From the IMG/VR virus record IMGVR_UViG_3300045988_182393, positions 1 through 64,000 of that record: a stretch of 64,000 nucleotides of DNA; one strand, given 5' to 3'. The position numbers were made by a program, and so were the translations under genes. The notes under the pieces are model-generated. The model worked only from the letters and a program-made list of their open reading frames with translations, had not been told where the DNA came from and made no database searches. Positions 34,256-37,540 of the stretch are shown here, in pieces. The DNA comes from a virus. Numbering within the stretch: the first letter of the stretch is position 1; each line of letters starts with the position of its first letter.

Positions 34256-35515
34256 ATGGCAAAGAATGAAAATCTGCACAAGGCAAAGGATGCCAAGAAC
34301 GACGAGTTCTATACTCTGTTGAGCAGTGTATCCGAAGAACTCAGGCACTATAAGCAGCATTTTGCAGACAAAATCGTGTTCTGCAACTGTGATGACCCGA
34401 CATGGTCTGCTTTCTGGCGTTACTTCCATCTGAACTTTTCTGAGCTTGGTTTGAAGAAACTCATTGCAACGCACTATGACCGCACTGAGCCCACCTACAA
34501 GATGGAGTATGAAGGCGGAGACGACAATGATGCGGAAGTCGGCGTAAAGACTCCACTCGAAGGCAATGGTGATTTTCGCAGCGAAGAATGCCTCGCCTTG
34601 CTGGATGAGTGCGATATTGTAGTAACGAATCCACCATTCAGCCTTGCAAGAGCCTACGTCCAGTGTCTACGTGAGCACAACAAGCAATTCGTTATCATTG
34701 GGGACCTCAACTGGATTACCTATAAAGAAATTTTCCCGATGCTAAAAGACAATGAAGTCTGGCTTGGATATTCTTCTGTAAAAGAATTCATACAACCCGA
34801 CGGAACAATCAAGAAATTCGGAAATAAATTGTGGTATACCAACCTCGATATCCAGAAACGCCACGAGAAGCTGATTCTCTGGCAGCGGTACTATGATGAT
34901 AATGGGAATCCTCTGCCGGACGTGGAAGAGCGCTACCCCCGCTATGATAACTACATGGCCATCAATGTGGATAGGGTTGCGGACATTCCGGTGGATTATA
35001 AGCCGTGTTGGTTCAAATGCAGCAGCGCAGAAAACTGTCCCTTTGCACAGGAAAAGGGAATGAATGATGCTCCAGCGTTGTGTGAGCATGGATGTAATGG
35101 GACAATGGGAGTGCCAATCACCTATATGGACAAACACAACCCGGATGAATTTGAAATCATAAAATTCCGCAAAGGTAATGATGATAAGGACTTGACATAT
35201 ACAATCGGCACCAACACAATCTTGACGGACAGACAGACAGACAGACAGACAGACAGACAGACAGACAGACAGACAGACGCAGAATTACACCTTACCTCCG
35301 GATTGTCATCCGAGCGAAAGTGTAACGGCATCATGGGCGTGCCAATCACATTCCTTGACAAACTCAACCACAAGCAATTCCGCATTGTCGGAGCAACCGA
35401 AAGTGAAGGAAAAGGCTTCTCAAACGGGTTGTGGTATGCAGACAGCGGAATTGCCCAGCCGGTCATCAACGGAACAAGAAAGTACAAGCGATTATTCATT
35501 CAGCCGCAGATGTAA
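34256..35515 (+). CDS. EcoRI-family (NPPF) adenine-specific DNA methyltransferase containing an in-frame (GACA)12 tract and duplicated C-terminal modules
   Basis: DEFYT, VVTNPPF (motif IV), CNGTMGVPITYMDKHNPDEFEII then TDRQx4 then CNGIMGVPITFLDKLNHKQFRIVG. RBS gggagat. Confidence 0.7.
   Translation: MAKNENLHKAKDAKNDEFYTLLSSVSEELRHYKQHFADKIVFCNCDDPTWSAFWRYFHLNFSELGLKKLIATHYDRTEPTYKMEYEGGDDNDAEVGVKTPLEGNGDFRSEECLALLDECDIVVTNPPFSLARAYVQCLREHNKQFVIIGDLNWITYKEIFPMLKDNEVWLGYSSVKEFIQPDGTIKKFGNKLWYTNLDIQKRHEKLILWQRYYDDNGNPLPDVEERYPRYDNYMAINVDRVADIPVDYKPCWFKCSSAENCPFAQEKGMNDAPALCEHGCNGTMGVPITYMDKHNPDEFEIIKFRKGNDDKDLTYTIGTNTILTDRQTDRQTDRQTDRQTDAELHLTSGLSSERKCNGIMGVPITFLDKLNHKQFRIVGATESEGKGFSNGLWYADSGIAQPVINGTRKYKRLFIQPQM
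35228..35275 (+). repeat. Tetranucleotide microsatellite (GACA)x12 inside the methyltransferase coding sequence
   Basis: 12 perfect GACA units counted from the sequence (48 nt), encoding TDRQ x4. Confidence 0.95.
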
Positions 35516-35699
35516 TGGAATTATGGGTGTGCCGATTACTTTTTTGGACAAGTATAACCCGGATGAATTTGAGATTATTCAACTCTGTGCCTCTCATGGG
35601 AAAGTGCCAAAAGGAATTGAGAATGAATCTGGCTATATAAATGGGAAATGGTTGTATGCCCGTATTCTTATTCAAAAGAAGAAAGAATGTAAATATTAA
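35280..35699 (+). other. Alternate-frame continuation encoding a third methyltransferase C-terminal module (reachable by +/-1 GACA unit)
   Basis: Frame 0 is open from the repeat to 35699 and encodes RRCNGIMGVPITFLDKYNPDEFEIIQ...NGKWLYARILIQ, paralogous to the module at 35300-35515. Confidence 0.5.
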
Positions 35700-35719
35700 G
35701 GAGAATTAGGAAAACTGAA

Positions 35720-36400
35720 ATGAAACAGAAAAAAGAGCAAAATGGGCTTATCTTCAAAAGCTATTTTCATGCACCTAACGAAGGCGAAGTGTACAAAAGT
35801 GCAATGAACAAGTTGTCAGACAAAACACTTAACAACTTTACGCCTATTTCTATGGCTACAACAGCAAAAGAAGAATTTAAAAACAAATTGGCTATTGAGG
35901 AATGGGTGAATTCGTATGTGGGGGCGGCTAAACAATTAGCACAACTAAATCAAAACAGATGTAACGGTGGCAAGACCGGGTATGCGCTTTATAAATACAA
36001 TTATACTTTGCCAACTGTGTTTCTCATAAGACACGCGGCAGAACTTGCAATAAAAGAAGCCATCGATAAAAGTGGGAAAGTGCCGAATAGCTCTACCCAC
36101 GACCTTGACAAGTTGTGGAATTCTATATCGAGTCAACTTCCTGAAAGTAAAACTCCAAACGATAGGAAAACCATACAGCAAGTGCGTACGTTTTTACAAT
36201 ATATATCCCACTTGGATAAAGATGGAACAAAAGCACGATATGCGGTTGATAAAAATGGAAATTATACGCACGCGAAATTCGAATGGGTGGATTGTATAAA
36301 ACTGTCTAATACATTAGATGCTTTTGTTACAACACTTCGTTCCATAGACTGGGAGCATGTTAAGGCTTCAAAGGAAAAAGAAGCAAAGAAAGAAGGATAA
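35720..36400 (+). CDS. hypothetical protein (low-GC)
   Basis: 226 aa, AT-rich codon usage. Sits between the methyltransferase and the Type IV restriction gene. Confidence 0.5.
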   Translation: MKQKKEQNGLIFKSYFHAPNEGEVYKSAMNKLSDKTLNNFTPISMATTAKEEFKNKLAIEEWVNSYVGAAKQLAQLNQNRCNGGKTGYALYKYNYTLPTVFLIRHAAELAIKEAIDKSGKVPNSSTHDLDKLWNSISSQLPESKTPNDRKTIQQVRTFLQYISHLDKDGTKARYAVDKNGNYTHAKFEWVDCIKLSNTLDAFVTTLRSIDWEHVKASKEKEAKKEG

Positions 36401-36403
36401 ATC

Positions 36404-37540
36404 ATGAAAATCACCGAAACTAAAATCAAGGTATCTGACCTTGTCGAGAACTACAAGGATAATGGCGATGGCGGTGTCTTTGGCTACAATGACCGTCTTA
36501 CGATTCGCCCGTCCTTCCAGCGTGAGTTTATTTACGGGGAGAAGCAGCGTGCAGCCGTCATCGATTCCGTAATGAACGGATTTCCGCTGAACGTCATGTA
36601 CTGGTCTAAGACCGGGGCTGACACATACGAGGTTCTTGATGGGCAGCAGCGTACCGTCTCTATTGCCCAGTACATCAACAAGGATTTCCCTGTCACGGTC
36701 AACGGCAATGATAAGTTCTTCCAGAACCTGACCAACGAAGAAAAGCAGGCAATTCTGGACTACGAGCTGACGGTCTATGTCTGTGAAGGCACGGAAGCCG
36801 AGAAGCTGGAATGGTTTAAGCGTATCAACATCGCTGGAGAAGTTCTGACTCCGCAAGAGCTGCTGAACGCTACCTATACAGGTCCGTGGCTGGCTGATGC
36901 AAAGAACTACTTCTCAAAGCGCAACTGTGTGGCCGCGAAGATGGCTGATGGTTACTTGAAAGGGAACCCTATTCGGCAGGAACTGCTGGAAAAGGCTCTG
37001 ACTTGGATTGCGGACCGGGATGGTCTGGAATCCGGGCAGATGTACATGGCTATCCACCAGCATGACGAGGATGCCAATGACCTCTGGCTTTACTTCCAGT
37101 CAGTTATCAACTGGGCAAAAATGCTGTTCCCGACTAAGCGGAAGGGGATTACTGATGCACAGGCGTGGGGACTGCTCTACAACAAGTACCATGCCATGCA
37201 GTACAACAGCAACGCTCTGGAAGCAGACATCAAGCAGCTCGTGATGGACGATGATGTGACGAAAAAGGCAGGCATCGTTCCGTACATCCTGTCTGACCGT
37301 ACATGGCGTGACGAGAAGCACCTGTCTCTGCGTGCGTTTACTGAATCCCAGAAACTCCGTGCCTACGAGCGGCAGGGTCACAAATGTCCCTTGTGCGTTG
37401 CAAATGGCATCAACACCGAGTATGCCTTTGAGGATATGGAAGGTGACCACATCATTCCTTGGAGCAAGGGCGGGCATACTACGGATGACAACCTGCAGAT
37501 GTTGTGCAAGAAGTGCAATGCGGCGAAGTCGGATATGTAA
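36404..37540 (+). CDS. GmrSD-like Type IV restriction enzyme (N-terminal DUF262/ParB-like + C-terminal HNH)
   Basis: VLDGQQRTVSI (DGQQR). C-terminus CPLC...GDHIIPWSKGGHTTDDNLQMLCKKCNAAK (HNH). Confidence 0.8.
   Translation: MKITETKIKVSDLVENYKDNGDGGVFGYNDRLTIRPSFQREFIYGEKQRAAVIDSVMNGFPLNVMYWSKTGADTYEVLDGQQRTVSIAQYINKDFPVTVNGNDKFFQNLTNEEKQAILDYELTVYVCEGTEAEKLEWFKRINIAGEVLTPQELLNATYTGPWLADAKNYFSKRNCVAAKMADGYLKGNPIRQELLEKALTWIADRDGLESGQMYMAIHQHDEDANDLWLYFQSVINWAKMLFPTKRKGITDAQAWGLLYNKYHAMQYNSNALEADIKQLVMDDDVTKKAGIVPYILSDRTWRDEKHLSLRAFTESQKLRAYERQGHKCPLCVANGINTEYAFEDMEGDHIIPWSKGGHTTDDNLQMLCKKCNAAKSDM

Follow-up and report, generated by a model that had tools for sequence, protein, structure and literature searches.

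A GACA repeat as a candidate selector of C-terminal modules in an EcoRI-family adenine methyltransferase gene

Methyltransferase gene and repeat tract

We analysed a stretch of 64,000 nt comprising positions 1-64,000 of the IMG/VR record IMGVR_UViG_3300045988_182393 (below, the window). The open reading frame (ORF) 34256-35515 encodes a DNA methyltransferase of the EcoRI family and contains a (GACA)12 tract, behind which segments encoding further C-terminal modules lie in different reading frames. A nuclease gene is located downstream. The methyltransferase ORF is preceded, at a distance of 8 nt, by a GGGAG ribosome-binding site. The features of the locus are as follows.

34163..34189, plus strand: terminator-like hairpin with a 12-bp stem followed by a T run; it closes the upstream unit, and the methyltransferase operon begins 3' of it
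34256..35092, plus strand: catalytic core of the EcoRI-family N6-adenine methyltransferase (amino acids 1-279), with motif IV DIVVTNPPF and a Cys-rich insert before the module
35093..35325, plus strand: module 1 (M1), consisting of the head CNGTMGVPITYMDKHNPDEFEII, a variable part starting with KFRKGNDDKDLTYT, the repeat, and its own tail RRITPYLRIVIRAKV followed by a stop codon; the own tail is in frame at 10, 13 or 16 units
35228..35275, plus strand: (GACA)12 microsatellite, the candidate frame selector; the imperfect tract spans 35224-35278
35276..35320, plus strand: linker DAELHLTSGLSSERK of the present reading frame; its DNA overlaps that of the M1 tail, encoded in a different frame, and it is kept in the related loci L024, L072 and L094
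35321..35515, plus strand: module 2 (M2), from CNGIMGVPITFLDKLNHKQFRIVGATESEGKGFSNGLW to RKYKRLFIQPQM and a stop codon; in frame in the present allele, with a stop-free +1 frame that forms the spacer of the M3 isoform
35511..35699, plus strand: module 3 (M3), CNGIMGVPITFLDKYNPDEFEIIQLCASHGKVPKGIENESGYINGKWLYARILIQKKKECKY and a stop codon; reached with 11 or 14 units, its start TGTAATGG overlapping the stop codon of M2
35720..36400, plus strand: ORF of 226 amino acids with a weak HEPN-like match (Pfam HEPN, E 1e-4), between the methyltransferase and nuclease genes
36404..37540, plus strand: DUF262 (ParB/GmrS-like NTPase) plus HNH nuclease, the conserved partner gene of this methyltransferase family

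By its sequence, the product of ORF 34256-35515 is an EcoRI-family (PF13651) gamma-class N6-adenine DNA methyltransferase. It matches the Pfam profile EcoRI_methylase at 346.8 bits against a cut-off of 26.4 (E 2e-103, profile positions 1-277) and the PADLOC profile MTase_II with E 3e-104. Motif IV reads DIVVTNPPFS in the translation, and the alignment shows little or no variation at residues N125, P126, P127 and F128. The enzyme has a Rossmann-type methyltransferase fold with the probable recognition part C-terminal to it, and its best matches among DNA methyltransferases are the gamma-class enzymes MmeI and M.TaqI, which bear a C-terminal recognition domain (PMC2582602). The profile's final 69 positions recur in all three modules (277-345 in M1 and M3, 277-343 in M2), with E 1.2e-13 for M1 in the 13-unit form and E 1.1e-11 for M3. 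Directly before the first module, at 35002-35092, there is a Cys-rich insert, PCWFKCSSAENCPFAQEKG...ALCEHGCNG, which is confined to this subfamily and may bind metal; its confidence in a structural model (predicted local distance difference test, pLDDT) is 56-65.

The tract at 35228-35275 is perfect and encodes (TDRQ)4 within the methyltransferase ORF, as had been read in the initial annotation of this DNA. Tandem Repeats Finder reports it as 35224-35278 with 13.8 copies and a score of 103. It is by far the strongest repeat with a short unit (1-15 nt) in the window, and the sole array with a higher score is an unrelated 222-nt repeat at 43435-43924. The unit preceding the tract is GACG, so that there are effectively 13 four-base units with one interruption. 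Since the unit length is not a multiple of three and the tract lies inside an ORF, gain or loss of a unit changes the reading frame, as in phase-variable genes. The tract occupies a loop just before the last strand of M1, about three quarters along the present ORF. Modules of the M1 type tolerate several different repeat-encoded peptides in this loop.

The gene was rebuilt in silico with 8 to 16 GACA units. With 10, 13 or 16 units the product ends in (TDRQ)n followed by TDRRRITPYLRIVIRAKV, that is, in M1 with its own tail; the stop codon is at 35323-35325, and the length of 353-361 amino acids is canonical for the family. With 9, 12 or 15 units, the linker and M2 are translated, giving 415-423 amino acids; the present allele of 12 units encodes 419 amino acids ending in RLFIQPQM. 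With 8, 11 or 14 units M2 is read out of frame without a stop and is followed by M3, yielding 475-483 amino acids; this frame is open to 35699 and ends in ILIQKKKECKY. Thus every frame behind the tract ends in a complete C-terminus of the family type. At each module junction the stop codon TAA sits within the sequence TGTAAYGG that opens the next module (Cys-Asn-Gly). The M2 end at 12 units and the frame open to a complete M3 at 11 or 14 units had been noticed initially, and both were confirmed by the rebuilding and the Pfam matches.

The open +1 frame through M2 is not due to chance. When the M2 protein was kept and synonymous codons were resampled, this frame was open in 2.9% of trials, and separate shuffling of the codon order left it open in 2.1%. 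The +2 frame was open in 0.02% of trials and is actually closed. The result was alike at four further loci that differ in M2 type and repeat: an open +1 frame (P 0.02-0.10 each) together with a closed +2 frame.

Each module opens with a conserved head (strand-helix-strand), continues with a hypervariable core and closes with a last strand that is again conserved (Y-x-R-I-x-I). Nine close relatives were compared: their N-termini share a median identity of 93%, as against 67% for the 24-residue head, 58% for the tail and 18% for the variable core. The 137 modules of the related loci fall into about 47 core types. The variable core cannot be aligned among enzymes that are otherwise about 93% identical, which is what one would expect of recognition domains. 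For the canonical homologue P0005, an AlphaFold model built from a diverse alignment has pLDDT 85.7 and a predicted template modelling score (pTM) of 0.83. In this model the catalytic core is above 90, the strand-helix-strand of the head (residues 283-304) reaches pLDDT 94-97 and the tail strand (343-348) about 90, and the variable core is a low-confidence excursion. Taken together, the alignments and the model suggest that the variable core is most probably the target-recognition element setting the methylated motif.

We propose that slipped-strand mispairing at the internal GACA tract would exchange the C-terminal module of the methyltransferase. In the first frame the enzyme would end in the own tail of M1, in the second it would continue through the short linker into the whole of M2, and in the third M2 would serve as a stop-free out-of-frame spacer leading to the whole of M3. 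One unit (4 nt) more or less would shift the gene by one state, and the present allele represents the M2 state. A clonal population would hold three enzyme forms differing in the hypervariable core, and because this core is most probably the target-recognition element, the three forms would write three different N6-methyladenine (m6A) motifs. The fused isoforms are presumably active, and the switching rate in vivo is presumably high. That the design has been selected for, with the repeat driving the choice of C-terminal module, has in our estimate a probability of roughly two in three (0.68). The initial annotation had claimed a swap of the C-terminus instead of simple inactivation. The swap is supported by cross-locus conservation, length differences and purifying selection; the number of outcomes had been given as two and is three, the state with the own tail of M1 having been missed.

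Related loci and selection on the modules

The comparison set contained 141 loci, and its multi-module members come from metagenome, IMG/VR and Logan/ENA contigs. Homologue searches returned many proteins of 380-681 amino acids among canonical ones of 312-350. Comparison of the locus DNA with annotated phage and plasmid records yielded no near relatives, only distant EcoRI-family genes, and GTDB representative genomes contained only single-module relatives with at most 68% identity. PF13651 genes as a whole number 5770 in a search of representatives. The nearest named genomes are metagenome-assembled genomes of Lachnospiraceae. Close relatives of the locus come from IMG/VR contigs, 50-390 kb long, and from metagenome contigs of the human gut. 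The repeat-bearing and multi-module loci (L numbers; proteins have P numbers) are listed below with the state of the allele where it applies.

GACA repeat: L026 (13 units, M2 state), L072 (13 units, M2), L094 (8 units, M1), L024 (6 units, M3)
GACA repeat, contig ending inside the tract: L076 (11 units), L038 (13 units), L095 (13 units)
Poly-G: L025 (G9, M1), L071 (G10, M3; its M2 and M3 DNA is identical to that of L025)
Repeat lost: L073 and L131, locked in the M2 state
(AGAGC)10: L151
(CA)10: L154
(CAAGCAG)4 plus (AGAGC)12: L152, with five to six modules and nested choices
(ACAGGCA)25: L153, with five modules
(GA)6-7: L055-L059 and L118

The design is thus seen with seven different repeat units. 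Apart from the separate (GA) form, every complete locus assigns its three frames alike: one ends in the own tail, one passes through the linker into the next module, and one reads through to the third module. The (GA)6-7 loci represent a compact form, where three overlapping frames encode variable-plus-tail segments ending in RVQPYFRILVRRR, GKINGKPTYARITIRRK and GLINGKETYRRILICKKA, each with the family tail motif. The M1 module type bears a repeat also in L151, L152 and L153 and in proteins P0053, P0061 and P0148.

Two further peculiarities were observed in the largest loci, L152 (2501-4700) and L153 (2501-4900), where five to six modules are combined with 7-mer and 5-mer repeats in nested choices. 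Behind the second repeat of L152 one frame gives a tail-only ending, GKRKYARIFVRQVL. A further frame switch seems to exist upstream of the first module, involving the variants RLPSGRQAA and KTGDLQDRRPARQ.

The GACA loci cover all three states: M1 in L094, M2 in the window, L026 and L072, and M3 in L024 (protein P0001), which comes from another sample. The poly-G loci do the same on one backbone, as defined by 90%-identity clusters, with P0005 and P0143 in the M1 state, P0137 and P0147 in M2, and P0131 in M3. GACA tracts of 6, 8, 11 and 13 units among related contigs correspond to different frames. The comparison of repeat numbers across related contigs had been named initially as a check, and an invariant length, which would have spoken against switching, is refuted by it.

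It is highly improbable that these lengths and frames are mere errors of short-read assembly. The tract length of the window is that of the assembled sequence alone, and three contigs break inside the tract. However, the three-frame design does not depend on the reported tract length, and assemblies made independently differ in unit number (6, 8, 11 and 13) while their flanks are otherwise collinear. Among them, L026 is 97% identical to the window and contains 13 perfect GACA units at the same total length. The three broken contigs, L038, L076 and L095, are independent of each other; such ends could be produced by length heterogeneity in the sample or by a limit of the assembler.

Another explanation is slippage of the RNA polymerase or the ribosome, by which one allele would yield all three C-termini and changes of the DNA tract would only shift their ratios. 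Some members of the family indeed carry G9-10 or (CA)10, kinds of repeats known to provoke transcriptional slippage, and frame-dependent leaky expression across a mod-gene repeat has been described in a heterologous system (bioRxiv 10.64898/2026.04.01.715767). However, tetra-, penta- and heptanucleotide units are not classical sites of RNA polymerase slippage, and length differences at the DNA level put related loci in all three frames. We consider this explanation improbable.

The downstream modules, judging from their substitution patterns, are under purifying selection. The ratio of nonsynonymous to synonymous substitution rates, omega, is 0.04 in the N-terminal core, 0.06-0.15 in both types of M2 (0.12-0.15 for the M2 of the window in its own frame) and 0.13-0.24 in the M3 types, as compared with 0.97 for M2 DNA read in the spacer (+1) frame. 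The values for M2 and M3 are low irrespective of the state of the locus, with M2 being out of frame in L024 and M3 in the window. The same module types are used alone elsewhere. The M3 core of the window, starting with QLCASHGKVPKGIENESGYINGKW, is the sole module of the P0135 group (341 amino acids), which is present on many long contigs, and the M2 type of the window (GATESEGKGFS...RKYKRLF) is the sole module of P0095.

These observations bear on a third explanation, that M2 and M3 are relics, left to decay after tandem duplications of the 3' end, and that the microsatellite was inserted as a neutral, hypermutable element. In its favour, the junctions, where TAA falls within the TGTAAYGG of the following head, resemble what short-homology duplication produces, and M2 of L072 has a substitution in a conserved motif. 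The omega of 0.06-0.24 in the downstream modules, the retention of the design with seven different repeat units, the open third frame and the use of the same module types as sole modules all argue in the opposite direction. The explanation is disfavoured by them and very unlikely. The same omega values count against the reservation, made initially, that the alternate-frame modules may be decaying pseudogenes. Independent expression of M2 and M3 as small ORFs (gene callers give a fragment of 58 amino acids) was considered and rejected: no promoter-like signal above chance was found, and a lone tail fragment cannot be a methyltransferase.

Finally, the tract may act as an ordinary ON/OFF switch, such that only the form of canonical length (10, 13 or 16 units) is active and M2 and M3 are silent cassettes for homologous recombination between heads. 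This is the sole repeat-driven mode given for methyltransferases in recent reviews. Indeed, the sequences indicate that recombination between the repeated heads can remove modules and leave a locus with a single state: the M3 core of P0135 follows an M1-like head, and P0130 represents a variant with a deletion. The lack of a confident model of a fused isoform also fits. On the other hand, if M2 and M3 served as silent cassettes, neither would have to occupy the single frame to which the tract gives access, nor would M2 need a +1 frame free of stops. Three GACA loci (the window, L026 and L072) show the M2 state, and a fusion locked in this state, its G run being broken (L073/P0121), was found on 42 contigs, all of them with the downstream nuclease gene intact. 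An inactive methyltransferase next to an active restriction partner should be counter-selected. Lastly, the (GA)n loci encode three overlapping tails, each with the family motif. The ON/OFF explanation is unlikely, more plausible though it is than the three discussed above.

Several points weigh against the frame-selected exchange of complete modules. The multi-frame design is in the minority, as about 125 of the 141 related loci have one module and no repeat. The AlphaFold model of the 419-residue fused isoform of the window, obtained from a shallow alignment, is poor (pLDDT 58), and which of the modules docks cannot be read from it. The M3 segments of the window and L024 differ at only four sites, leaving little power for the corresponding omega. 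M2 of L072 carries a P-to-L substitution in the conserved GVPIT. The contig ends inside the tract are only suggestive of within-sample heterogeneity, the comparison being one of assembled contigs. In addition, a nuclease that had its own fixed specificity would make any switch of methyltransferase specificity lethal.

Partner nuclease and neighbouring genes

The nuclease gene 36404-37540 encodes an N-terminal GmrSD_N/DUF262 domain (PF03235, 74.5 bits against a cut-off of 33.2, E 1.7e-20) and C-terminal matches to PF01844 HNH (E 2.4e-13) and HNH_5. A Pfam scan of this protein gave no match to DUF1524 (GmrD). The PADLOC profile REase_II PDLC03418 is matched along residues 1-377 of 378 (E 1e-130). 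A homologue of the nuclease is encoded downstream of the methyltransferase in 109 of the 141 related loci. In GTDB genomes the pair is found in Lachnospiraceae, Alphaproteobacteria, Bacteroidota (Paludibacteraceae, Prevotella), Dehalococcoidia and Fibrobacter, and related pairs occur in plasmids of many phyla, including small plasmids. In the Lactiplantibacillus plasmid pBGM48-4 the nuclease gene directly follows the methyltransferase gene with an overlap of 11 nt and nothing between. Among the repeat-bearing or multi-module loci the nuclease ORF is intact in 14 of 15, the exception being L055 (5671-), where it ends at 70 amino acids.

From this conservation and its profile matches the DUF262-HNH protein looks like the cognate restriction partner of the methyltransferase. 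The initial annotation had described it as an enzyme of the GmrSD type (Type IV), a class that typically restricts modified DNA, and its proximity to the methyltransferase as a striking pairing. A chance neighbourhood with a modification-dependent Type IV nuclease is not supported: DUF1524 is not matched, the match to a Type II profile is full-length, and the gene is a conserved downstream partner in loci and plasmids alike. As for its position, it had been placed two genes downstream; it does lie downstream, with one gene (35720-36400) between. No terminator-like site was found between the methyltransferase and nuclease genes. The intervening HEPN-like ORF is complete only in the window and L026, and is reduced to a stump of 56 amino acids in L024. 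It was considered as a third component of the system and rejected, being absent or truncated in relatives.

The pair resembles Type II systems in that separate methyltransferase and nuclease genes form one operon and the nuclease matches a restriction-enzyme family. However, the nuclease does not co-vary with the recognition part: 1303 of 1424 pairs with nucleases at least 90% identical have unrelated variable cores. No hypervariable segment matching the specificity was seen in the nuclease, only a mosaic N-terminal stretch in L025. In that locus (nuclease at 5852-6997) the N-terminal 150 amino acids are 51-68% identical to those of the window and the rest is 78-100% identical. Judging from this alignment, a recombination tract seems to cover the modules of the methyltransferase together with the first (5') half of the nuclease gene. 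Type III systems differ in both components, having a superfamily 2 helicase plus PD-(D/E)xK Res protein in place of DUF262+HNH, and a beta-class Mod, with a central recognition domain, in place of a PF13651 enzyme with a C-terminal module; a likeness could lie only in the logic, if the nuclease relies on the methyltransferase.

A locus whose methyltransferase changes specificity could not keep a conventional Type II nuclease of fixed specificity, and thus three options are left for the relation of the nuclease to the variable core. One is that the nuclease depends on the methyltransferase, or on the methylation status irrespective of sequence. Another is that the variable core does not set specificity. 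The last is that the nuclease is unrelated to methylation. The first of these has a precedent in SspE, where a DUF262 nuclease acts as the restriction arm of a modification system (PMC12707154).

Tentatively, the locus may even represent a novel two-gene restriction-modification system, where a nuclease without specificity of its own would be directed or licensed by the methyltransferase. Such a system would combine Type III-like logic with a GmrSD-like NTP-dependent restriction subunit, and slippage would change the target of modification and of restriction at once, the choice being of three specificities here and of at least five in the relatives with two repeats. If so, the mobile element would gain a stochastic, reversible, multi-specificity immune or anti-immune system encoded in overlapping frames. 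We regard this as a minority possibility.

The remaining genes of the window include many helicase, nuclease and polymerase genes, one SPFH gene and one vWA gene. The window has no tRNA and no clear virion module, and scans of its larger ORFs against PHROG, Pfam and PADLOC do not decide between a phage and a plasmid. The element carrying the locus looks mobile, and therefore a role in defence or anti-restriction is at least as likely as gene regulation. The initially described low-GC mosaic patch is modest: GC content at 34-37 kb is somewhat low, 0.42-0.45 as compared with about 0.43-0.52 elsewhere in the window.

Several observations concern neighbouring genes. A NADAR-family gene lies upstream at 30984-31436 (NCBIfam 'NADAR family anti-phage protein', E 6e-17, below the cut-off), beside a ResIII/SWI2-SNF2 helicase gene at 28208-30403 that matches PADLOC Type IV mREase profiles; both neighbours are also present in L024 and L026. 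ORF 43186-44511 contains a 222-nt tandem repeat at 43435-43924 (2.2 copies, 74% match). Its product contains repeated DUF4379 treble-clef zinc-finger units and has a match to the PHROG 'HNH endonuclease'. In L024 a DUF4379 gene is located directly upstream of the methyltransferase, and L025 has three further methyltransferase genes upstream. In L003, L006, L007 and L016 two tandem EcoRI-family methyltransferase genes precede the nuclease, and P0020 is a fusion of two. A tandem pair of methyltransferases is typical of systems with asymmetric sites.

Comparison with known phase-variable systems

The arrangement is close to the Type III mod phasevarions (modA of Haemophilus influenzae, Neisseria), where a tetranucleotide-type repeat within the ORF of an N6-adenine methyltransferase shifts the frame by its length, a hypervariable recognition region is embedded in an otherwise conserved protein, and a restriction partner follows downstream. 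However, the repeats of mod genes are located near the 5' end and act in the ON/OFF mode, and their recognition alleles differ between strains and not within a cell (PMC5909438; PMC13076061). In the present gene the repeat comes late in the first C-terminal module, and whichever frame follows it, a complete alternative module is reached. Moreover, a gamma-class PF13651 enzyme with a DUF262+HNH partner takes the place of a beta-class Mod with the helicase-nuclease Res.

In repeat-bearing Type I hsdS genes (poly-G in NgoAV; PMC7383803) a repeat in the specificity-determining gene likewise alters the C-terminal part of the product, by which the methylation specificity is changed there and not the expression alone. 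Their alternatives are full-length and truncated dimerising HsdS, a separate S subunit, with no cassettes in other frames. The hsdS invertons and shufflons (SpnIII, tvr, Bacteroides; PMC7672463, PMC7394358) share with the design proposed here a set of alternative recognition cassettes kept at a single locus, of which one is used at a time, so that methylation has multiple states. They employ site-specific or homologous recombination between inverted repeats, whereas here direct tandem copies would be picked by frame. A case from a Type II-class enzyme is the (TA)n repeat of DCM8/DAM3 in Mycoplasma hominis, proposed in 2023 as the first repeat-bearing Type II methyltransferase (PMC10305163). 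It too has a repeat in the recognition region, which is heterogeneous within a strain, but its out-of-frame states truncate the second methyltransferase half and offer no alternative modules. The neighbour is similar to GmrSD, BrxU and SspE in having an N-terminal DUF262 (ParB/Srx-like NTPase) with a DGQQR motif followed by a His-Me-finger nuclease (PMC4619093). It differs from GmrSD and BrxU, which are stand-alone enzymes attacking modified cytosines, by PF01844 HNH in place of DUF1524 and by its obligate pairing with a methyltransferase.

Reviews of 2025-2026 recognise two modes of methylome phase variation, repeat-driven ON/OFF switching (Type III, few Type II or IIG) and recombination of hsdS (PMC13076061, PMC11868660). 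In the literature searched, the coverage of which is partial so that absence is not proven, we found neither alternative modules selected by frame nor, in PF13651 enzymes, any repeats or repeat-selected C-terminal cassettes. The locus points to a third mode, with the repeat as a three-position selector among complete recognition modules encoded in three frames of one gene. The relatives extend this mode, either to nested selectors with five or more outcomes or by compression into three overlapping tails.

If confirmed, the mechanism would bring multi-state epigenetic switching to enzymes of the Type II class and to the mobile elements of gut Firmicutes, in which heterogeneity of motifs confuses methylation-based binning. 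It would also be a clean case from nature in which selection keeps all three reading frames of one coding region intact, and would raise the sharp question of how the strictly co-inherited DUF262-HNH nuclease tolerates the switch.

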